From IMG/VR virus record IMGVR_UViG_3300028392_000053, positions 1 to 64,000 of that record: 64,000 nt of DNA. One strand, given 5' to 3'. The position numbers were made by a program, and so were the translations under genes. The stretch comes from a virus. Of this stretch, positions 204 through 8,018 are shown piece by piece. The notes below the pieces were generated by a model that was given only the letters and a program-made list of their open reading frames with translations, was not told the origin of the DNA and did not search any database. Each line of letters starts with the position of its first letter. Positions within the stretch are counted from its first letter, which is position 1.

Positions 204-279
204 GTCGGCATGACCCGAATGGCTAGGGAACGGATTGCAACCCCGTTATATGCAGGTTCGACTCCTGTTGCCGACTCCA
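204..279 (+). tRNA. trnC: tRNA-Cys(GCA)
   Basis: Acceptor GTCGGCA/TGCCGAC, anticodon GCA, TTCGA T-loop, encoded CCA. Confidence 0.92.
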
Positions 280-357
280 CTTTTCATAAAGGTTGTTTTT
301 ATGACCTTTATGACTGGTTTTTGTTCGTAATGGCTCTTTTTAAGACCTTTATGACAG

Positions 358-418
358 TGTTGTTTTTTAACAACAACATGCAAATAGATGTTGACAAAGC
401 CGCTGGTTCTGTTATACT
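358..418 (+). promoter_or_regulatory. sigma70-type promoter with upstream TGTTG-N8-CAACA palindrome
   Basis: Palindrome 358-375, TTGACA 391-396, TATACT 413-418. Confidence 0.7.
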
Positions 419-463
419 CTATGCATAGATTGAGAAATCAATAAGTAACTGCGAAAAAGCAGA

Positions 464-524
464 TGTTGTTTTTAAGCAACAAAGCGAAAAAAGTAGTTGC
501 CAAGAAAGATAGTTGTGTTATAAT
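464..524 (+). promoter_or_regulatory. sigma70-type promoter with upstream TGTTG-N8-CAACA palindrome
   Basis: Palindrome 464-481, TTGCCA 497-502, TGnTATAAT ending 524. Confidence 0.7.
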
Positions 525-591
525 AGACACATAGCAACAAATGATTGAGTCAGTTGCAAGAAAGTTCTTTAAAAAGTTAAGTGTAATTTGT

Positions 592-666
592 GCTCCTGTC
601 GTCTACTGGCTAGGACGCTGCCCTTTCAAGGCGGAAAAGAGGGATCGAAACCCTTCAGGAGTACCA
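592..666 (+). tRNA. trnE: tRNA-Glu(TTC)
   Basis: Cloverleaf, anticodon loop CTTTCAA, CCA. Confidence 0.92.
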
Positions 667-880
667 TATTAAAATGCATTAGGTTACCAACCCAGTAGGT
701 ACCTTAGCAGAGAACTATTCCTAGTGACGGCTAGGCTCTGCTAAGACTACATGAAGCCCCCCGAAGGTGCTGGAACAAGTTGGAATGTAATGTGTTTGAC
801 AAACAAGTCCGTGGACGGCACGGTAGGGCAGGATCAAAACTGTTATTTTTGTCAAACATCCTAGTGTGTTTTAATATGGT
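663..880 (+). ncRNA. structured ncRNA closed by 21-bp stem (family B)
   Basis: 663-683 pairs with 860-880 with G-U pairs; internal TGTTTGACAAA/TTTGTCAAACA helix; no ORF. Confidence 0.65.
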
Positions 881-882
881 AG

Positions 883-1010
883 TGTCATTTGTTTTGTTGA
901 TGTAAGCCATGAGGGAAACGTCAACCTTGAGTAACTATGTACAGAAACGGTAATTGTTGCAACTGACTCCGTTGAGCATAGCAAATAGTGCGTCAACAAA
1001 ACAAATGATA
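883..1010 (+). ncRNA. structured ncRNA closed by 22-bp stem
   Basis: TGTCATTTGTTTTGTTGATGTA pairs with TGCGTCAACAAAACAAATGATA; ends 1 nt before tRNA-Lys. Confidence 0.6.
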
Positions 1011-1011
1011 T

Positions 1012-1085
1012 GGGGGTATAACTTAGTGGTAAAGTAGTAGGCTTTTAACCTATTAACCAGAGTTCAATTCTCTGTGCCCCTACCA
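1012..1085 (+). tRNA. trnK: tRNA-Lys(TTT)
   Basis: Cloverleaf, loop CTTTTAA, CCA. Confidence 0.93.
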
Positions 1086-1093
1086 AAGATTTT

Positions 1094-1159
1094 AGGATAA
1101 GTTCAGCAAACATTTATACATTTGACTTTTAATCAAAACCGTAAAAAATTATCCTGTTG
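1094..1159 (+). ncRNA. Y-RNA-like ncRNA (family A) carrying a Lys(UUU) anticodon stem-loop
   Basis: AGGATAA/TTATCCT closing stem, GTTCAGCAA motif, internal TTTGA-CTTTTAA-TCAAA. Confidence 0.75.
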
Positions 1160-1165
1160 TATTTT

Positions 1166-1241
1166 GCCCTGGTGACGGAATGGTATACGTACTGGTCTTA
1201 GAAACCAGGTTCTGAGAGTTCGAGTCTCTCCTAGGGCACCA
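1166..1241 (+). tRNA. trnL: tRNA-Leu(TAG), short variable loop
   Basis: Cloverleaf, loop CTTAGAA, 5-nt variable region, CCA. Confidence 0.9.
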
Positions 1242-1371
1242 AATCGGAAAGCAAAAACTTTCTGTTAATCCATACATTATGTGTATGGCGGGTCCAGCGG
1301 GGCATCACATGGTGTTCTTTCGGTGTCCACGTTAGAGACACGGCTAAAGTTCGTAATGCCACATATTTTTA

Positions 1372-1446
1372 GGTCTTAAAGTGTTCATGGACGCACACAT
1401 GCCTGTCACGCATGAAGAAGGGGATCGTTACCCCTTAAGACCGCCA
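1372..1446 (+). tRNA. trnD: tRNA-Asp(GTC)
   Basis: Cloverleaf, loop CTGTCAC, GCCA end. Confidence 0.9.
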
Positions 1447-1452
1447 AGATTT

Positions 1453-1526
1453 CCTCCGTTAGCTCAATGGTAGAGCAATCGGCTGATAACCGATAGACAG
1501 AAGTTCAATTCTTCTACAGAGGACCA
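1453..1526 (+). tRNA. trnI: tRNA-Ile(GAT)
   Basis: Cloverleaf, loop CTGATAA, CCA. Confidence 0.9.
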
Positions 1527-1532
1527 AGTTTT

Positions 1533-1590
1533 AGAATCCATTCAGCAAATAAAAACTTTCACTGGAAATGAAAAAAAGCGGATTCTGTTG
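1533..1590 (+). ncRNA. Y-RNA-like ncRNA (family A) carrying a Ser(GGA) anticodon stem-loop
   Basis: AGAATCC/GGATTCT closing stem, ATTCAGCAA motif, internal TTTCA-CTGGAAA-TGAAA. Confidence 0.75.
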
Positions 1591-1597
1591 TATTTTT

Positions 1598-1685
1598 GGA
1601 GCCTGTTCCCTTCAGCGGACTGTAAATCCGTTGCCTTTAATTGGAGGGTGGTTGGCGGATGGTTCGATTCCTTCAGGCTCCACCA
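1598..1685 (+). tRNA. trnY: atypical tRNA-Tyr(GTA) lacking a canonical D-arm
   Basis: Acceptor GGAGCCT/AGGCTCC-ACCA, loop CTGTAAA, T-loop TTCGATT; only ~10 nt between acceptor and anticodon stems. Confidence 0.7.
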
Positions 1686-1687
1686 GT

Positions 1688-1716
1688 TGCCAACATATAT
1701 AAAGTATGTTATAATA
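1688..1716 (+). promoter_or_regulatory. sigma70-type promoter inside tRNA array
   Basis: TTGCCA followed by TGTTATAAT just upstream of tRNA-fMet. Confidence 0.6.
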
Positions 1717-1723
1717 GTTTTAT

Positions 1724-1798
1724 CGCGGGATAGGAAAGAGGTAATCCGCTAGGTTCATACCCTAGAGATCGGTGGTTCAATTCCACCTCCCGCAACCA
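1724..1798 (+). tRNA. trnM: tRNA-fMet(CAT), initiator-like
   Basis: C1:A72 mismatch, CAT anticodon, CCA. Confidence 0.85.
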
Positions 1799-1804
1799 GT
1801 TTTC

Positions 1805-1878
1805 GCCCTATTAGTATAATGGTATTACACCTGTTTTGTAATCAGGTTACGGCAGTTCGATTCTGTCATGGGGCACCA
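1805..1878 (+). tRNA. trnT: tRNA-Thr(TGT)
   Basis: Cloverleaf, loop TTTGTAA, CCA. Confidence 0.92.
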
Positions 1879-1887
1879 AGTTTTTTT

Positions 1888-1961
1888 GCGGGGTTAGTTT
1901 AATGGTAAAACTACAGATTTCCAATCTGTTGTTGAGAGTTCGATTCTCTCACCCCGCTCCA
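1888..1961 (+). tRNA. trnG: tRNA-Gly(TCC)
   Basis: Cloverleaf, loop TTTCCAA, TCCA end. Confidence 0.93.
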
Positions 1962-1967
1962 GTTTAT

Positions 1968-2033
1968 GCAGTCGGATATTAACCGTGTTGGGGTCCACCC
2001 AATATCTACGTGGGAATCGTAGTGACTGCTCCA
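1968..2033 (+). ncRNA. 66-nt miniature tRNA-like RNA ending TCCA (Gly-like)
   Basis: GCAGTC/GACTGC acceptor-like stem, three hairpins, central loop GGTCCAC, no TTCG T-loop. Confidence 0.6.
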
Positions 2034-2038
2034 GTTTT

Positions 2039-2112
2039 CTCGGTGTGGTGAAATGGTATCATGCATGGTTTGGGACCATGTGGCGAAGGTTCGATTCCTT
2101 CTACCGAGACCA
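2039..2112 (+). tRNA. trnP: tRNA-Pro(TGG)
   Basis: Cloverleaf, loop TTTGGGA, CCA. Confidence 0.92.
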
Positions 2113-2130
2113 GTTTTATAGTTAGAATAT

Positions 2131-2206
2131 TCCGGTGAAGCAAACTAGGTGTGGGCAGAGGACTGTTAATCCTTGAAGCCAGGTTCGAATCCTGGGACCG
2201 GAGCCA
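2131..2206 (+). tRNA. trnN: tRNA-Asn(GTT)
   Basis: Cloverleaf, loop CTGTTAA, GCCA. Confidence 0.88.
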
Positions 2207-2211
2207 ATTTT

Positions 2212-2285
2212 GGGGAATTAGTATAATGGTATTACGGCAGCCTTGCAAGTTGTTCATAGGAGTTCGATTCTCCTATTCTCCACCA
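2212..2285 (+). tRNA. trnA: tRNA-Ala(TGC)
   Basis: Cloverleaf, G3:U70, loop CTTGCAA, CCA. Confidence 0.93.
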
Positions 2286-2291
2286 AATTTA

Positions 2292-2366
2292 GGTGATATG
2301 ACGTAGATGGATGCGTAACGGTTTCATAAGCCGATGAGGAAGGCTCGGTACCTTCTATCACCACCA
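2292..2366 (+). tRNA. trnM: tRNA-Met(CAT)
   Basis: Cloverleaf, loop TTCATAA, atypical T-loop CTCGGTA, CCA. Confidence 0.82.
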
Positions 2367-2380
2367 AAAGATACGAAACT

Positions 2381-2388
2381 TATAAATA
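2381..2388 (+). promoter_or_regulatory. T4-type late promoter TATAAATA
   Basis: Exact T4 gp55 consensus upstream of RBS AAGGAG and HNH ORF. Confidence 0.6.
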
Positions 2389-2411
2389 GTTCGTATACTT
2401 AAGGAGATAAC

Positions 2412-2840
2412 ATGAAAATATGTTCTTGTTGTAAAATAGAATATCCAATAGAAAAATTTGCCTTTAAAAATAAGGCATTAGATAAAAGAAATGCAATGTG
2501 TGATGATTGTAGGCAAGAGAGACAAAAACTTTCTTATTATAAACACCACGAAACGAATTTGAAAAGAATTAAACAATATAAAAAAGACAATAAAGAATGG
2601 TTTTTCGAAATGAAAAATAAACTATCTTGTTGTGTTTGTGGTGAATCGGAATCTTATTGTTTAGATTTTCACCATCTTGATGTTGCTAAAAAAGAGTTTG
2701 ATATTTCCACAAAAGTGGATGCTAGTAAAAATAAAATTTTAGAAGAAATCAATAAGTGTGCTTGTCTATGTGCAAATTGTCACAGAAAACATCACGCCGG
2801 CAAATTAAATGCGCCTTTGGTGAAACTGGATATCACATGA
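2412..2840 (+). CDS. HNH endonuclease (zinc-finger type)
   Basis: CxxC pairs, LDFHH...LCANCHRKHH; RBS AAGGAG; 3' end overlaps tRNA-Arg. Confidence 0.85.
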   Translation: MKICSCCKIEYPIEKFAFKNKALDKRNAMCDDCRQERQKLSYYKHHETNLKRIKQYKKDNKEWFFEMKNKLSCCVCGESESYCLDFHHLDVAKKEFDISTKVDASKNKILEEINKCACLCANCHRKHHAGKLNAPLVKLDIT

Positions 2841-2886
2841 GTCTACGAAATTCAGATTGGGGATTCGAATTCCTCAGGGCGCACCA
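2811..2886 (+). tRNA. trnR: tRNA-Arg(ACG)
   Basis: GCGCCTT/AGGGCGC-ACCA, loop CTACGAA. Confidence 0.9.
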
Positions 2887-2903
2887 ATTTTTAGGAGTTT
2901 TAA

Positions 2904-3038
2904 ATGGCTAATGTTAAAAAAGGCAATCTGACTGGTGCTCCACAATGGTGGAAACACCTCAAAGATTTCAAACGAGTGTTTTGGAAAACAGAACGCAAGG
3001 CTCAACAAAAAGACCTAAAAGGAAGATTGTATGAGTGA
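2904..3038 (+). CDS. small basic hypothetical protein (44 aa, MANVKKGNLTGAPQWWKHLK...)
   Basis: RBS AGGAG, overlaps start of next ORF; below ORF-track cutoff. Confidence 0.6.
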   Translation: MANVKKGNLTGAPQWWKHLKDFKRVFWKTERKAQQKDLKGRLYE

Positions 3039-3237
3039 TGGTGGAAAAGGTTCGTCACCCAGACCTTATAGTGTTTCGCAAAACGAATTCTCTAAGAATT
3101 GGGACACAATCTTTAGAAAAGATCCACGGGAAATTGAGGATCAAAAAAATGAAGATGAGGCTTTTGAAGAAATTTCACGGAGAGTCCTAGATATGCCTGG
3201 AACAATTGGTTCAGCTAAAATTGTTTTTTCCGTGTGA
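3031..3237 (+). CDS. hypothetical protein
   Basis: 68-aa ORF starting MSDGGKGSSPRP. Confidence 0.65.
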   Translation: MSDGGKGSSPRPYSVSQNEFSKNWDTIFRKDPREIEDQKNEDEAFEEISRRVLDMPGTIGSAKIVFSV

Positions 3238-3258
3238 TTCAGAAGTTAAAAATAATAT

Positions 3259-3332
3259 GTCTCGATAGTGTAATGGCAGCACTGCGGTCTCCAAAACCGT
3301 AAGTCTAGGTTCGAGTCCTAGTCGGGATGCCA
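3259..3332 (+). tRNA. trnW: tRNA-Trp(CCA)
   Basis: Cloverleaf, loop CTCCAAA, GCCA. Confidence 0.92.
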
Positions 3333-3346
3333 AATAAGGAAATGAT

Positions 3347-3838
3347 ATGAAAAATTTTGATATCCAAAAAGTAAAAGATTTTATTTTGGCTCAAGGACCA
3401 GACACACGTGTTTACCTTGGTGCAGACTCCGAACGTATGCGTGTAAACGGAGTTTGGTATGCGGATTACGCTTTGGCTGTCGTTGTTCATATCGATGGTT
3501 GTCACGGATGTAAAATCTTCGGATTTGTTGACCGTGAATTAGATTATGACCACAAGAAGTCCAAGCCTGCAATGCGTTTGATGACAGAAGTTTACAAAGT
3601 ATCCGCTCTGTTCCAAGAAATGCAGGATGTATTGGAAGACCGTCACGTTGAAGTTCACTTGGACCTTAACAAGTCAACTGAACACGGTTCTTCTTGTGTT
3701 GTTCAACAAGCAATTGGTTATATCAAAGGTACATGTAACATGACACCAATGGTTAAGCCAGATGCGCCGGCCGCTTCTTTCTGTGCAGACCGTCTAAAGC
3801 GGATTCTAGCAGAACAAGAATTGACCGAAGCCCACTAA
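3347..3838 (+). CDS. RNase H-like YkuK (DUF458) family protein
   Basis: YLGADS, RLMTEV, EVHLDLN, ASFCAD motifs. Confidence 0.75.
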   Translation: MKNFDIQKVKDFILAQGPDTRVYLGADSERMRVNGVWYADYALAVVVHIDGCHGCKIFGFVDRELDYDHKKSKPAMRLMTEVYKVSALFQEMQDVLEDRHVEVHLDLNKSTEHGSSCVVQQAIGYIKGTCNMTPMVKPDAPAASFCADRLKRILAEQELTEAH

Positions 3839-3877
3839 TCTCCTACATAAGGGTTTAACTACCCTTAGGAGATTAGT

Positions 3878-4261
3878 ATGGCTAGAAAACCAAATTTAGC
3901 AAAGACTGCGAATAGAGATACACACGTTGGTCATGGAATGGATAGAAGTCCTAAATGGCCTGGTGTTCAGAAACTACATTTGAAGTTTCATCCTGTTTGC
4001 GAATCTTGTGGTTCAACTAACAATTTGAATGTCCATCATAAGAAGCCATTCCATTTGTTTCCAGAACATGAATTGGATTTAAATAATCTAATTACACTTT
4101 GTATGGATCCATTGAAAGAGTGTCATATTAAAATTGGACATGGTGATAACTTTAAAGACTACAATCCAGAAGTAGAAACAGATGCACAAAAAGTTCGATT
4201 AGATGTTAATTTATTTGAATCGGTTGTAGCAGAAGCAAAGAAGAAACGTTTAATATCTTAA
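3878..4261 (+). CDS. HNH endonuclease
   Basis: CESCG...NVHHKKP...NLITLC...CHIKIGH. Confidence 0.8.
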   Translation: MARKPNLAKTANRDTHVGHGMDRSPKWPGVQKLHLKFHPVCESCGSTNNLNVHHKKPFHLFPEHELDLNNLITLCMDPLKECHIKIGHGDNFKDYNPEVETDAQKVRLDVNLFESVVAEAKKKRLIS

Positions 4262-4302
4262 ACACGGCTGGACCCTCTGCGAAAGTGCGGTCCAGTTCTC
4301 AT

Positions 4303-4376
4303 GCGGGTATGATGTAATGGTAGCTTATGACCTTGCCAAGGTTAATGTGAGAGTTCGATTCTCTCTACCCGCTCCA
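4303..4376 (+). tRNA. trnG: tRNA-Gly(GCC)
   Basis: Cloverleaf, loop TTGCCAA, TCCA. Confidence 0.92.
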
Positions 4377-4384
4377 GTTTTTAT

Positions 4385-4459
4385 GTGGTTGTTAGTTTAG
4401 TGGCAAAACCGCGGGTTGTGATTCCGCTATCACGGGTTCGATTCCCGTACATCCACCCA
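4385..4459 (+). tRNA. trnH: tRNA-His(GTG)
   Basis: G-1:C73, loop TTGTGAT, CCA. Confidence 0.92.
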
Positions 4460-4478
4460 ATTTTATTAAGGATATTTT

Positions 4479-4718
4479 ATGACGTATGTTCCATTGAATC
4501 GTAATGTAATTGTTGAACGAAAAGCACCAGAGAAAGTTTCTGCTGGTGGTATCATTCTTCAATCTTCACTTGAACCAGACCGTGCAACTGTTGTTGCTAC
4601 CTCTGACGAATCCCTTTCAATTGGTGAAGAACTATTGATTAATTGGAACAAAGCATATAAGATTGAAAATGAAACATATCGTATTCACATTGATGATGTG
4701 ATTGCAGTATTTGAATAA
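4479..4718 (+). CDS. groES: GroES-like co-chaperonin
   Basis: PLNRNVIVER...SAGGIIL mobile loop...DDVIAV. Confidence 0.85.
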   Translation: MTYVPLNRNVIVERKAPEKVSAGGIILQSSLEPDRATVVATSDESLSIGEELLINWNKAYKIENETYRIHIDDVIAVFE

Positions 4719-4793
4719 GCCTTGTTAACTCAGCGGTAGAGTGCCCTCCTTACAAGTGGGAAGCCGGCGGTTCGATCCCGTCACAAGGTACCA
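4719..4793 (+). tRNA. trnV: tRNA-Val(TAC)
   Basis: Cloverleaf, loop CTTACAA, CCA. Confidence 0.92.
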
Positions 4794-4796
4794 AGT

Positions 4797-4975
4797 TTTG
4801 TAAGTGTAGATGTAGTGAAAGTAAGGCGTCGAAAACCTTATGAGGCAACGGTTCGAGTCCGGCAACATGGCAACGGCTAAGTAACTACTATTACTACGTA
4901 CCTCTATCCTGTCCGCGGCTTTAAAGAAAATACAGGTAGAATGGTTTCGATGAGTGAGGTGGAACTACTTACAAA
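4797..4975 (+). ncRNA. putative structured ncRNA (~180 nt)
   Basis: TTTGTAAGT/ACTTACAAA closing stem, internal hairpins, T-loop-like CGGTTCGAGTCCG, no ORF. Confidence 0.5.
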
Positions 4976-5028
4976 TTCAATTTCTCCATAACACACGGAG
5001 TATAATAGGATAAGTTGTGTGTTAATTT

Positions 5029-5102
5029 GCTTTTATCGTACAGTGACAGTACACGCCCTTGGTACGGGCGAAACCCAAGTTTGATTCTTGGTAGAAGCAC
5101 CA
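5029..5102 (+). tRNA. trnT: tRNA-Thr(GGT)
   Basis: Cloverleaf, loop TTGGTAC, CCA. Confidence 0.87.
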
Positions 5103-5106
5103 ATTT

Positions 5107-5182
5107 GCGTCTTTAGCTGATATGGTTATAGCACCGGTTTGAAGCACCGAGGAAAGTGGTTCGATTCCACTAGGACGCACCA
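5107..5182 (+). tRNA. trnF: tRNA-Phe(GAA)
   Basis: Cloverleaf, loop TTGAAGC, CCA. Confidence 0.9.
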
Positions 5183-5305
5183 TATTGAAACATATTCATC
5201 ATTGGTTGGGAGCCTGTAGCGGATGGCATCCGGGACTACTCAACGAAACAGCATTAGCCAGCGTGATGAAAAGCCTCTTGACGGCGAGAGTATGTTTCAA
5301 TATGG
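5180..5305 (+). ncRNA. structured ncRNA closed by 18-bp stem (family B)
   Basis: CCATATTGAAACATATTC pairs with GAGTATGTTTCAATATGG. Confidence 0.65.
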
Positions 5306-5378
5306 GTTGTAAACTTAAGTGGTGAAGTAACCGGCTCTTAACCGGAAGAACAGAGTTCGATTCTCTGACAGCCCACCA
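5304..5378 (+). tRNA. trnK: tRNA-Lys(CTT)
   Basis: Cloverleaf, loop CTCTTAA, CCA. Confidence 0.92.
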
Positions 5379-5383
5379 AATTT

Positions 5384-5510
5384 GGAGATGTGATGTAATG
5401 GTAGCATAGCATAGCAAAAAAATTATCCTGTAAAGGATAAGTTCTGCAACAACTACGCTCTAACTCTGTAAAAGTTCTTGTGTGCGGTTCGAATCCCACC
5501 ATCTCCACCA
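5384..5510 (+). ncRNA. chimeric tRNA / family A RNA (circularly permuted, CCA-ended)
   Basis: Acceptor GGAGATG/CATCTCC-ACCA with D- and T-arms; insert TTATCCT-GTAA-AGGATAA-GTTCTGCAA plus AACT-CTGTAAA-AGTT hairpin. Confidence 0.75.
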
Positions 5511-5517
5511 ATTTTAT

Positions 5518-5593
5518 GCCCCGATGACGGAATGGTATACGTGCTTGATTCAAAATCAAGATTCTGTGGGTTCGAGTCCCACTTGGGGTACCA
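5518..5593 (+). tRNA. trnL: tRNA-Leu(CAA), short variable loop
   Basis: Cloverleaf, loop TTCAAAA, CCA. Confidence 0.9.
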
Positions 5594-5594
5594 T

Positions 5595-5683
5595 GGAAGA
5601 TGCAGTAAGATGGTTCTTACACCTGCTTGGAAAGCAGGCCACTGGCTTTGCCGGTGGGGGTTCAATTCCTCCTTCTTCCACCA
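5595..5683 (+). tRNA. trnS: tRNA-Ser(GGA)
   Basis: Long variable arm, loop TTGGAAA, CCA. Confidence 0.9.
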
Positions 5684-5684
5684 T

Positions 5685-5759
5685 GTCTCTGTAGTTCAAC
5701 GGATAGAATACATTCCTCCTAAGAATGGGATACAGGCTCGATTCCTGTCGGAGACACCA
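5685..5759 (+). tRNA. trnR: tRNA-Arg(CCT)
   Basis: Cloverleaf, loop CTCCTAA, CCA. Confidence 0.9.
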
Positions 5760-5820
5760 TGTTGTTTTTAGGTAACAATGCAAGAAAAGTCTTGCCAAAT
5801 TACACTTAACGTGATATAAT
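5760..5820 (+). promoter_or_regulatory. promoter for Y-like RNA + DUF2828 unit
   Basis: TGTTG-N8-TAACA 5760-5777, TTGCCA 5792-5797, 17-nt spacer, TATAAT 5815-5820. Confidence 0.75.
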
Positions 5821-5848
5821 CTTTATATGGAGATTATATAAGTTTTTT

Positions 5849-6060
5849 AGGATGGATTCAGCAATTATAAACTTAATTGACTAAAGACCCGTTACTACAG
5901 GAGGACCACCGCAAGGTGTAATTACGTAACTAGGGAATCAACCTGAATTAAATTTGACGCTGGAAAAGACAGCAAAGATGATGGTAGTCCATTAGGGTTT
6001 GAGTGGTTCAATTGCACTCCGGTTAGAGTAAACCGAAAATTACAGAACGACCATCCTGTT
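5849..6060 (+). ncRNA. long Y-RNA-like ncRNA (family A)
   Basis: AGGATGG/CCATCCT stem, ATTCAGCAA motif, multi-hairpin interior with T-arm-like GAGTGGTTCAATTGCACTC. Confidence 0.72.
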
Positions 6061-6079
6061 ATTTTATTTTGAGAGTTTT

Positions 6080-6188
6080 AGAGTAGGTTCAGCAAAACAA
6101 AACTAGCTGGTTCGATTCCAGCATTATCCACCCAAACTCGAAAGAGACTCGGATCATGTGCCATGGTGGCAATCAAACTACTCTGTTG
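6080..6188 (+). ncRNA. YrlA-like Y RNA (family A)
   Basis: AGAGTAG/CTACTCT stem, GTTCAGCAA, T-arm GCTGG-TTCGATT-CCAGC preceding a D-like hairpin. Confidence 0.78.
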
Positions 6189-6193
6189 TTTTT

Positions 6194-6314
6194 AGGTTAA
6201 GTTCCGCAAAACAAATTAATGCAAATGGAAACTGAAAGGCCGGTTCGATTCCGGGTTCCCTTAGAGGATAAAGTGTAATGGTTGCACATCGGATGCTAAA
6301 AGTTTAACCTGTTG
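6194..6314 (+). ncRNA. YrlA-like Y RNA (family A)
   Basis: AGGTTAA/TTAACCT stem, GTTCCGCAA, T-arm CCGG-TTCGATT-CCGG then D-arm GTGTAATGGTTGCAC. Confidence 0.8.
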
Positions 6315-6332
6315 ATTGAAAAGGAGTTCATT

Positions 6333-7754
6333 ATGTCAACATTTGTCGAAGCCGTTATGAATCAAGAAGCCCGTACCGAAAACGGTATGAAGGCTCGCAA
6401 GTCTACCGCCAATGCGGTGGTTGATTTGTTTTACAATGCGGGTGCATCCCGTGGAAAAGATATTAAGCCTGCATTTGCGGCTGCCTTGGCAGAGAACCGT
6501 GAATTGGCTCTCCGTGTTGCCGCATGGCTACGTGATGCACGTGGTGGTGCTGGTGAACGTCAACTGTTCCGTGATATCCTAGTGTATCTGGAAAAGACTG
6601 ATACGGAAGCCGCTAAGGCTCTGTTGGCTAAGGTGCCTGAATTGGGACGTTGGGATGACTTGTTCATCTTCAAGACCAAGGTTTTGAAAGAAGCCGCATA
6701 TACCTTGCTTGGCAACGCTTTGCGTGAAAAGAATGGTTTGGCGGCTAAGTGGTCTCCTCGCCAAGGTCCAATTGCGGCAGAAATCCGTACATTCTTCGGA
6801 ATGTCACCAAAGTTCTACCGCAAGTCTTTGGTTGAAATGACCAAGGTTGTTGAAACAAATATGTGTGCAAAGGACTGGGATTCCATTAACTTTTCACATG
6901 TTCCTTCCGTAGCGGCTGCCCGTTACAAGAAGGCCTTTAATCGTAACACCCAAACATATGCAACTTATGTTGCGGCTTTGGTAAAGGGTGACAACCCTGA
7001 AGTTAAGGTTAACGCATCTGTGGCATTCCCATATGATGTGCTGAAGGGTCGTATCTCCAACTATGGAGTTTCATTCAACAAGACCGAATTGGACTTGATT
7101 GAAGCACAATGGAATGCATTGCCTAACTATGTTGGGGATGCTAACATTCTGCCTCTAGTTGACGTATCTGGTTCTATGACCTGCACCGCAGGCAAGACCG
7201 GTAAGTTGACCTGTTTGGAAGTTGCAGTCTCTTTGGGATTGTACCTTGCTGACAAGAACAAGGGTGCGTTCAAGGACACATTCTTGACCTTCTCTGGCAA
7301 GCCAGAATTGATGCACCTAAAAGGTGGTATCAACTCTAAGATTGACCAAATGGTTAAGTCCAACTGGGATATGAACACTGACCTGAACAAGGCCTTTGCG
7401 AAAATCCTAGACGTTGCTGTAAAAGGTAACGTAGCACAAGAAGATATGCCAGGAATGGTGTTGATTCTGTCTGACATGCAATTTGACGCTTGCGTTAAGC
7501 ATGATGACTCTGCAATCGAAATGATTGCACGTAAGTACGAAGCCGCAGGATACACTTTACCAAAGGTTGTATTCTGGAACTTGAACGCCTCATATGGTAA
7601 CTCACCTGTGAAGTTTGACAAGTCTGGTACTGCACTGGTGTCTGGTTTCTCTCCAGCCGTGGTTAAGCCACTCCTTGCTGGTGACCTAGAAACCTTCACA
7701 CCAGAATCTGTGATGCTTAAGACCATCATGGATGACCGTTACAAAGTGCTGTAA
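6333..7754 (+). CDS. DUF2828-type helical + vWA protein, Ro60/TROVE-like putative RNA-binding protein
   Basis: RTENG, LRDARGGAGER, GRWDDL, LAAKW, MIDAS DVSGS, ILSDMQFD, VFWNL, LVSGFS; RBS AAGGAG before ATG 6333. Confidence 0.8.
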   Translation: MSTFVEAVMNQEARTENGMKARKSTANAVVDLFYNAGASRGKDIKPAFAAALAENRELALRVAAWLRDARGGAGERQLFRDILVYLEKTDTEAAKALLAKVPELGRWDDLFIFKTKVLKEAAYTLLGNALREKNGLAAKWSPRQGPIAAEIRTFFGMSPKFYRKSLVEMTKVVETNMCAKDWDSINFSHVPSVAAARYKKAFNRNTQTYATYVAALVKGDNPEVKVNASVAFPYDVLKGRISNYGVSFNKTELDLIEAQWNALPNYVGDANILPLVDVSGSMTCTAGKTGKLTCLEVAVSLGLYLADKNKGAFKDTFLTFSGKPELMHLKGGINSKIDQMVKSNWDMNTDLNKAFAKILDVAVKGNVAQEDMPGMVLILSDMQFDACVKHDDSAIEMIARKYEAAGYTLPKVVFWNLNASYGNSPVKFDKSGTALVSGFSPAVVKPLLAGDLETFTPESVMLKTIMDDRYKVL

Positions 7755-7774
7755 CGCAGTGGGCACCGAAAGGT

Positions 7775-7860
7775 GTCCATTTTGAAATACATTACTGAAG
7801 TTGGTTCAGTCAGACAGGGATATCCAATTGCCTATGTCGTTAGTGTGTTTCAAAATGGAC
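7775..7860 (+). ncRNA. structured ncRNA closed by 20-bp stem (family B)
   Basis: GTCCATTTTGAAATACATTA pairs with TAGTGTGTTTCAAAATGGAC. Confidence 0.62.
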
Positions 7861-7862
7861 AT

Positions 7863-7940
7863 GCGGATGTAGCCGAATTTGGTATAGGCAATGGACTTAA
7901 AATCCATAATCTGAGGGTTCGAGTCCCTCTATCCGCACCA
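7863..7940 (+). tRNA. trnL: tRNA-Leu(TAA), short variable loop
   Basis: Cloverleaf, loop CTTAAAA, CCA. Confidence 0.9.
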
Positions 7941-7943
7941 AAT

Positions 7944-8018
7944 GCTCCGATAGCTTAATGGTAAAGCAGTGAACTCATAATTCATTGAGTCTAGGTTCAA
8001 TTCCTAGTCGGAGCACCA
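7944..8018 (+). tRNA. tRNA(CAT), Met or Ile2
   Basis: Cloverleaf, loop CTCATAA, CCA; third CAT tRNA in the array. Confidence 0.85.

Follow-up and report, generated by a model that had tools for sequence, protein, structure and literature searches.

The stretch of DNA analysed here (hereafter, the window) comprises the first 64 kb of an 84.5-kb virus record, IMGVR_UViG_3300028392_000053, which is estimated to be about 50% complete; the sequence was found in freshwater metagenome runs. The window carries 26 tRNA genes, all on the + strand and spanning positions 204-8018 (ARAGORN), and an Rfam search of the whole window at the gathering score returned 24 tRNAs and nothing else. Within this array sits an open reading frame (ORF; 6333-7754, + strand) for a protein of 473 amino acids with the domains DUF2828 and DUF7788, which, on the evidence of Pfam, PHROG, AF2, Foldseek and VIA-align (see below), we refer to as the Ro60-like gene. 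The subject of this study is a pair of tandem elements, RNA 1 (U1; 6080-6193, including a U-rich tail at 6185-6193) and RNA 2 (U2; 6194-6314), both on the + strand and lying 19-253 nucleotides (nt) upstream of the gene. They are followed by a Shine-Dalgarno sequence, AAGGAG (6321-6326, + strand), and the start codon of the gene (ATG, 6333-6335), both read from the sequence. Upstream of the pair are a 212-nt multi-hairpin RNA, unit 0 (5849-6060, + strand; folding z -2.51, with contigs of RNA libraries), and a sigma-70-like promoter (5792-5820, + strand) with 11 of 12 consensus matches and an extended -10. RNA 1 was delimited from the sequence, a consensus fold and pair counts, and RNA 2 from the sequence, a consensus fold (n = 13), pair counts over 28 sequences and the letters of its T and D loops.

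A sequence-only reading of the window had described 6080-6314 as two tandem RNAs with the topology of bacterial YrlA, and this description holds: in both, a T arm, a closed acceptor-like hairpin and a D arm follow one another within a closing stem, and covariation agrees. In RNA 1, the 7-bp closing stem pairs 6080-6086 with 6178-6184; it is followed on the 5' side by the motif GUUCAGCAA (6087-6095) and encloses the T arm (6106-6122, loop TTCGATT at 6111-6117), the closed acceptor-like hairpin (6123-6157) and a D-arm-like hairpin (6159-6171) with a short 5-nt loop containing GG. The tail is GUUGUUUUU (6185-6193). In RNA 2, the closing stem (6194-6200 paired with 6304-6310) has 7 bp, or up to about 10 with G-U pairs, and the 5' motif is GUUCCGCAA (6201-6209); the T arm is at 6240-6254 (loop TTCGATT, 6244-6250), the acceptor-like hairpin at 6256-6268 and the D arm, GTGTAATGGTTGCAC, at 6273-6287. 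RNA 2 ends with GUUG (6311-6314), from which AAGGAG is separated by 6 nt, close enough to the distance of about 5 nt to the Shine-Dalgarno sequence given by the earlier reading. Neither RNA follows the order of the tRNA cloverleaf (acceptor-D-anticodon-T-acceptor). The region 6080-6314 was called by neither ARAGORN nor Rfam tRNA, and an Rfam search of 5760-6400 at E<=10 gave four chance-level matches, with no Y RNA among them.

A protein-guided scan provided 78 related viral loci as a comparison set. RNAalifold consensus structures of 10 relatives of RNA 1 and 13 relatives of RNA 2 show the closing stem, the T arm, the acceptor-like hairpin and the D arm. A covariance model (R1), built from the RNA 2 alignment within the clade of the window only, gathered 28 distinct sequences and scored RNA 1 at 33 bits (E 5e-4). 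In the covariance-model alignment of these 28 sequences, 96.6% of the cells pair, against 73.4% after shuffling; the covariation score is 0.600 against 0.189; none of 500 shuffles attains the real values, and both sides change in 16 of the 22 pairs (slid controls, 32-46%). This alignment was fitted to the model and is biased toward the structure, but the margin is large nonetheless. For the relatives of RNA 1 (n = 10, aligned with MAFFT), the corresponding figures are 98.7% and 93.2%, with both sides changing in 5 of 23 pairs; the closing stem and the D stem are invariant among these 10 relatives and are therefore uninformative there. In the 28 sequences of the RNA 2 kind, conservation is 90% or more both for the T-loop core GGTTCGAnTCC and for the D-loop letters AA.T.GG.TAG. 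Judged from these alignments, all four helices appear to be backed by compensatory changes, and the presence of both elements, as originally noted, is confirmed.

The protein encoded downstream matches Pfam PF25043 (DUF7788; 1e-48) and PF11443 (DUF2828; 1.5e-21) and, over its full length, phrog_850, 'RNA-binding protein' (3.6e-141); a library search with it returned 6085 cluster representatives at E<=1e-3. An AF2 model computed from 134 aligned sequences (pLDDT 93.7, pTM 0.91) was compared with known structures. Foldseek against PDB placed Ro60 at ranks 1-12 (E 6.7e-9 to 7.2e-7, 509-569 aligned columns) and only vWA domains from rank 13 onward. VIA-align superimposed residues 9-453 of the model on Ro60 (1yvr) with Z 21.3 and a root-mean-square deviation of 3.9 over 406 residues; its top ten rows were all Ro60 (Z 21.3-13.3), and rows with vWA domains only had Z of 11.2 or less. 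The model has the layout of Ro60, in which a ring of helical repeats precedes a vWA domain that bears a MIDAS motif, and D277, S279 and S281, which align with the Ro60 MIDAS motif, are invariant in the 134 sequences. At the level of sequence, phmmer with the protein against PDB sequences found no match; hints from profiles point to Ro60 as well, the four best matches of a profile of the protein alignment in PDB being weak and all Ro60 (E 0.029-0.075). Among the 30 matches listed from the ESM Atlas, 28 belong to TROVE + vWA_Ro60 clusters and the other two to TROVE (score 0.93). We conclude from the predicted structure that the DUF2828/DUF7788 protein is best described as a divergent Ro60. With a Ro60 fold encoded next door, the analogy of RNA 1 and RNA 2 to Y RNAs is apt.

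The closing stem and the letters around it recur in other RNAs, and we call this combination the handle. It consists of a 7-bp stem formed by the 5' and 3' ends, single-stranded NNN-C(A/C)GCAA after the 5' strand, an A-rich stretch before the 3' strand and GUU after it. Each of RNA 1 and RNA 2 is made of two modules, the handle and a displayed tRNA elbow (T arm, sealed acceptor-like hairpin and D arm). Six handle RNAs are present in the window, five of which are end-closed, all on the + strand (1094-1158, 1533-1589, 5849-6060, RNA 1 and RNA 2); in these five, the stem begins with AG and is followed by NUUC(A/C)GCAA, and its 3' complement leads into GUU and a U-rich tail. In the window and the 78 loci, a CUGUU that has a fully complementary 5-mer in front of it lies downstream of 75 of 79 distinct 5' motifs, against a mean of 11.5 and a maximum of 19 in swapped controls. 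The 5-mers are of 19 different kinds, and all 108 motifs are on the plus strand, the minus strand having 0; the four motifs that lack a CUGUU partner belong to the same stem closed by a tetraloop. With a looser anchor (GCA, a 7/7 stem and G), 1060 mostly noisy candidates were obtained and set aside; CA was the commonest dinucleotide before GCA among them (239 against 98 for the next). A gapped DNA pattern scan of viral contigs found 121 loci, mostly tRNA-tRNA junctions, of which the stem-and-motif filter retained 31 units in 17 loci.

What the handle encloses varies widely. Besides the elbow of T arm, acceptor-like hairpin and D arm seen in RNA 1 and RNA 2, we found the elbow placed after an anticodon-arm-like hairpin (a full tRNA body in permuted order), a D-anticodon-T body in normal order, long multi-hairpin RNAs such as unit 0 (stem 5849-5855/6051-6057, motif AUUCAGCAA, no Rfam match) and single small hairpins. 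Loops of 7 nt, most of them on 5-bp stems, occur in 27 of the 44 distinct short units; of these 27, 25 carry U at loop position 2 and 22 a purine at position 6, letters that resemble those of anticodon loops. Two such units are in the window. The first (1094-1158, + strand), directly 3' of tRNA-Lys(UUU), has as its sole insert a 5-bp hairpin whose 7-nt loop, CUUUUAA, is that of the adjoining tRNA-Lys(UUU); in the second (1533-1589, + strand), the sole insert, a 5-bp hairpin with the loop CUGGAAA, looks like an anticodon arm. The handle is also found inside tRNA-like RNAs of normal topology. In the window, one of these (5384-5510, + strand; folding z -2.53) has an acceptor stem, a D arm, a T arm with a bulged stem and an encoded CCA, and its D arm is separated from an anticodon-like hairpin (loop CUGUAAA) by the handle, here capped with a GUAA tetraloop; this RNA is called by neither ARAGORN nor Rfam tRNA. 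Four over-long tRNA-like genes, two in Cronobacter phage S13 (locus L209, 4396-4516 and 4526-4638; 121 and 113 nt, annotated tRNA-Ser and tRNA-OTHER) and two in Synechococcus phage BUCT-ZZ01 (locus L212, 5577-5697 and 5711-5827), are tRNA bodies with a closed handle inserted between the D arm and the T arm. Three of the four, L212 5577-5697 not being among them, reach 40.9-56.9 bits with Rfam tRNA. An inner helix seen in the closed handles of BUCT-ZZ01 (GUAGAA/UUCUGC) was discarded as a family-wide feature, there being none in RNA 1 or RNA 2. A further tRNA-like RNA that escapes the callers is found at 1596-1690 (z -2.11), with a 7-bp acceptor stem, CCA, a T arm, a long variable arm, the anticodon loop CUGUAAA (Tyr-like) and a UUCAGC-containing stretch in place of the D arm.

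Since the handle exists both in an end-closed form and in a tetraloop-closed, tRNA-like form, it is an autonomous module that occurs in both circular permutations, which is hard to square with a role solely as an end-processing site. This bears on the idea that the closing stems are processing clamps or punctuation, with RNase III or another host nuclease freeing assorted passenger RNAs from the tRNA-array transcript and with no specific tie to the DUF2828 protein. The position of handle RNAs between tRNAs, their 3' tails running directly into the next tRNA or unit, and the great diversity of the passengers would suit such a role, but we regard it as unlikely. Stems of 7 bp (RNA 1) or 7-10 bp (RNA 2) fall well below the length of classical RNase III sites, which span roughly two helical turns of double-stranded RNA. 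A conserved single-stranded CAGCAA adjoins the stem, stem and motif also occur tetraloop-capped inside tRNA-like RNAs, away from any end, and, as described next, 10 of 12 distant phage lineages show the handle linked to the Ro60-like gene.

In all 65 loci that include the gene start (65/65, the window included), the 3' stem of a handle ends 13-27 nt before the ATG; the unit abutting the gene is of the T-loop kind in 30, short in 20 and of the other long kind in 15. tblastn detected homologs of the protein in 710 phage records, and Felixounavirus-like records with a homolog number 244; in the pattern scan, the gene lies within 1.2 kb in 7 of the 121 loci. For cultured phages, we inspected 12 lineages within 3 kb of the gene, counting as a handle RNA an intergenic unit on the strand of the gene with a 7-bp stem and NNNCAGCAA. 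Handle RNAs are present in 10 of the 12, in phages that infect Proteobacteria, Cyanobacteria, Firmicutes, Actinobacteria, Fusobacteria and Campylobacter. They lie upstream of the gene in Synechococcus phage BUCT-ZZ01 (three, the last abutting the ribosome-binding site), Listeria phage P100 (three) and Campylobacter phage NCTC12673 (two, with a handle RNA between the promoter and the ribosome-binding site); the single handle RNA of Fusobacterium phage phiKSUM is likewise between promoter and ribosome-binding site. They lie downstream in Cronobacter phage S13, Mycobacterium phage LeBron (three) and Staphylococcus phage 6ec (two or three); Salmonella phage BPS15Q2, a Felixounavirus relative, has four, all within the tRNA array just downstream of the gene. 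Bacillus phage Tsamsa has three and Enterococcus phage EfV12-phi1 one. The strict handle pattern, applied to the loci of the 12 lineages, gave 31 matches on the plus strand and 9 on the minus strand (shuffle mean, 6.35), some of the plus-strand matches falling within ORFs and being noise; the Campylobacter, Fusobacterium and additional Staphylococcus units were identified by eye. Genes for RNA ligases were seen near the Ro60-like gene in two of these phages: in P100 (locus L215, 5780-7063), an RtcB-type 'tRNA splicing ligase' is encoded five genes downstream, and in Xanthomonas phage XbC2 (locus L210, 345-1610), an RNA ligase two genes upstream. They recall the rsr-yrlA-rtcBA neighbourhood of bacteria.

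The promoter-like site at 5792-5820 is the likely start of a transcript that would run through unit 0, U1, U2 and the gene, to judge from the sequence; no terminator-like site was found on the + strand between this site and the gene. The possibility of an intrinsic terminator was dropped, the sole terminator-like sites on the + strand falling inside the gene. For expression, contigs from four metatranscriptome runs were aligned to the window. Two contigs from two studies, of 193 nt (5859-6051) and 173 nt (5871-6040, no differences), lie wholly within unit 0. A third, of 353 nt, joins unit 0, RNA 2 and the start of the gene and skips 6066-6189; it comes from a relative without RNA 1, which several of the loci lack too. 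Parts of 6102-6209 were uncovered in three of the four runs, which tells nothing either way. The contigs of RNA libraries thus cover relatives of unit 0, RNA 2 and the start of the gene, and mean presence in RNA libraries only.

The position of RNA 2 raises the question whether it is chiefly a cis-acting leader, through which the protein would repress its own translation, as the sequence-only reading suggested, or the 5' end of the mRNA would be stabilised or defined. The spacing of 13-27 nt between the handle 3' stem and the ATG in 65/65 loci would fit, as would the lack of a terminator-like site between RNA 2 and the gene, the handle RNA placed before the ribosome-binding site in NCTC12673 and phiKSUM, and a bare UUACAGCAA in the leader of Vibrio phage TCU-VP04-AIR2. 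In that phage, the motif (locus L219, about 2970-3000) follows a promoter-like site and stands 7 nt before the ribosome-binding site, an arrangement that would be in keeping with the protein binding its own leader directly. However, the ribosome-binding site lies outside every conserved helix, the insert of the abutting unit is not conserved (a T loop in only 30 of 65 loci), the RNAs are downstream of the gene in S13, Felixounavirus, LeBron and Staphylococcus 6ec, and identical handles occur far from the gene. A chiefly cis-acting role seems to us unlikely. Autoregulation by binding of the protein to RNA 2, which does not exclude a role of the RNAs as partners of the protein, may operate beside it, but we would not count on it.

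How the RNAs relate to YrlA was assessed next to what is known of that family. YrlA is bound by bacterial Ro60/Rsr, bears tRNA modifications and serves as a substrate for RNase P and the CCA-adding enzyme. The order V-T-AS-D, a motif GNCGAAN0-1G near the 5' end, and Y RNAs at most 4 kb from Ro60 on the same strand, with three tandem copies in phage CcrColossus, are described in the accessible text of Chen et al. (2014; PMC4201824). Like YrlA, RNA 1 and RNA 2 have their 5' and 3' ends joined in a stem whose 5' strand bears a conserved motif, enclose a T arm, a closed acceptor-like hairpin and a D arm with near-invariant T- and D-loop letters, and stand, often in tandem, beside a Ro60-fold gene on the same strand and within about 4 kb of it. 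Unlike YrlA, they have a partner from the DUF2828/DUF7788 clade and not from Pfam TROVE, and their handle bears many other inserts and also exists in an unpermuted tRNA topology. None of the DUF2828-type phages is in the phage list of Chen et al. (Bacillus phage G, Caulobacter CcrColossus and 20 cluster C mycobacteriophages; PMC4201824 Table S2). On two of the features tested, the 5' motif and the gathering score, RNA 1 and RNA 2 are not YrlA in the strict sense. An elbow-kind handle RNA of LeBron is matched both by Rfam YrlA (39.8 bits, E 1.7e-7) and by the R1 model (55.6 bits, E 1.3e-10) and so bridges the two families.

The best YrlA match in the whole record, at 7884-7997 (24.8 bits), is a tRNA-tRNA junction, where the T arm of one tRNA gene leads into the D arm of its neighbour. 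In tRNA arrays, junctions of this kind generally give rise to false YrlA-like matches, and the permuted topology may plausibly have evolved by way of them. They raise a further possibility, namely that RNA 1 and RNA 2 are decayed or circularly permuted tRNA genes, either functionless remnants or genes that mature into real tRNAs: at junctions, a T arm naturally comes to stand before a D arm, and the best YrlA match and most of the 121 pattern loci are of this kind. But all four helices appear to be kept by compensatory changes, the handle is conserved, the acceptor-like stem is sealed by a loop and 0-9 bp long, and RNA 1 and RNA 2 have no CCA and, as their consensus folds indicate, no anticodon arm. 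We consider this explanation extremely improbable, and the permuted-tRNA-gene version of it was considered and dropped.

In our view, RNA 1 and RNA 2 are probably Y-RNA-like small non-coding RNAs and partners of a divergent phage Ro60. That the DUF2828/DUF7788 protein binds them also seems probable to us, the co-occurrence of gene and handle and the predicted fold of the protein giving this good support. RNA 1 and RNA 2 would be made from the promoter at about 5792-5820, on one transcript with unit 0 and the gene that follows, and cut out of this transcript; the Ro60-fold protein would dock via the handle, paralleling Ro60 on the stem and 5'-strand motif of Y RNAs; and the tRNA-like module would let the particle engage tRNA-recognising proteins, for tRNA/RNA surveillance and repair or as a counter-defence decoy. 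It has also to be asked whether the RNAs act without the phage protein, serving as decoys or sponges that occupy host enzymes which bind tRNA or defence nucleases which cleave it. The inserts are indeed pieces of tRNA (elbows, whole D-anticodon-T bodies and anticodon-arm look-alikes), but the conserved handle and its linkage to the Ro60-like gene across lineages would be left unexplained, and we find such an action very unlikely.

Several observations weigh against RNA 1 and RNA 2 being partners of the Ro60-like protein, or Y-RNA-like at all. The search with the Rfam YrlA model (RF02553; 114 positions, gathering score 69 bits), which the sequence-only reading had proposed as a check, was negative: cmsearch gave no match at E<=10 in 5760-6400, so that neither RNA is detected and the gathering score is not reached. 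At E<=0.1, the model has no match in S13, BPS15Q2 or BUCT-ZZ01 either. The protein-contact motif of YrlA and Y RNAs, GNCGAAN0-1G, is absent, with NNN-C(A/C)GCAA in its place, and Pfam TROVE (PF05731) does not match the protein at E<=0.01. Folding of the single sequences is unimpressive (z = -1.56 for RNA 1 and +0.74 for RNA 2). The minimum-energy fold of RNA 2 does not recover the consensus structure, and its acceptor-like hairpin is weak in the window (about 3 bp), one pair being broken relative to relatives (alignment column pair 71/81). Single-sequence folding being unconvincing, the case depends on the comparison of relatives. As to the link with the gene, Xanthomonas phage XbC2 has the gene with no handle RNA within 3 kb, and TCU-VP04-AIR2 has UUACAGCAA in its leader with no stem partner and no full handle. 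Among five other records with handle RNAs and no gene within 1.2 kb, the gene is elsewhere in two; the remaining three are fragments, estimated to be 3-16% complete. In the window itself, the handle RNAs at 1094-1158 and 1533-1589 are in the tRNA array, 5 kb from the Ro60-like gene. Finally, the contigs show no RNA ends, and carry-over of DNA into the RNA libraries is possible.

A more far-reaching version can be put forward only tentatively, and we hold it to be doubtful. The stem and CAGCAA handle may be the universal docking site of the very large and hitherto unpaired DUF2828/DUF7788 clade of phage Ro60-like proteins, displaying interchangeable parts of tRNA (a lone anticodon arm, a lone elbow or an entire body, permuted or in normal topology), and the particles may be programmable tRNA decoys or adaptors that shield the phage tRNA supply against host defences, including tRNA-cleaving ones and systems such as ppl.

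Related systems offer several points of comparison. Thermus phage phiLo has two Yrl RNAs upstream of its Ro60 gene, bound by the protein, according to the accessible text (PMC12135203). As here, a phage Ro60-fold protein has two Y-RNA-like genes directly upstream (PDB 9kop, 9l5y), and our protein model aligns with 9kop at Z 17.6 (VIA-align). Unlike here, Yrl1 and Yrl2 of phiLo were chosen by a CGAA motif in a stem-bulge-stem, the protein is a canonical TROVE, and the term 'tRNA-like' is not used in the text of the paper as far as it is accessible (PMC12135203). In Felixounavirus Bas63, gp130 has a Ro60-like structure, its gene lies upstream of the tRNA genes, and the protein acts against the ppl defence system; as a guess, the authors suggest that Y RNAs may be hidden among the genes annotated as tRNAs (PMC11482910, accessible part). 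Like the protein of the window, gp130 is Ro60-like; its gene is directly upstream of a phage tRNA array, and no RNA is named in that part of the paper. From genus and gene position, we infer that gp130 is a homolog of the protein of the window. With the Y RNAs of metazoans and Deinococcus, which also act with Ro60, the RNAs share the combination of a protein-binding stem and an effector-binding module; those Y RNAs differ in having other sequence motifs and no complete tRNA-like elbow, Deinococcus Yrn1 showing only a T stem-loop and some D-loop features (Chen et al., PMC4201824, accessible text). The accessible part of a jumbo-phage survey reports ROT/TROVE proteins with a tRNA-like partner (PMC7824862), and that of a LeBron screen found gp53 toxic on overexpression (PMC13148394). 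In the literature searched, subscription papers and preprint supplements being outside the search, we found neither a description of handle RNAs nor an RNA partner named for the DUF2828 family.

RNA 1 and RNA 2 are distinct from Rfam YrlA, keep the YrlA order and stand beside a Ro60-like gene of the DUF2828 type. The purpose of the tRNA-like half of bacterial Y RNAs is an open question. If handle RNAs are indeed partners of the protein, the Ro60/Y-RNA system would reach Felix O1-like, T4-like, Listeria P100-like, staphylococcal, campylobacter and cluster L mycobacterial phages, some of which are genetically tractable; one relative has a known phenotype, countering the ppl defence system (PMC11482910, accessible part). 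The modular handle, in permuted and unpermuted settings, provides a concrete hypothesis for the binding site, and its design accounts for several over-long or 'tRNA-OTHER' annotations in phage genomes. Two other ORFs were noted within the tRNA array of the window, one RNase H-like (3347-3835; PF04308, 5.3e-13) and one for an HNH endonuclease (3878-4258; PF01844, 1.8e-5).

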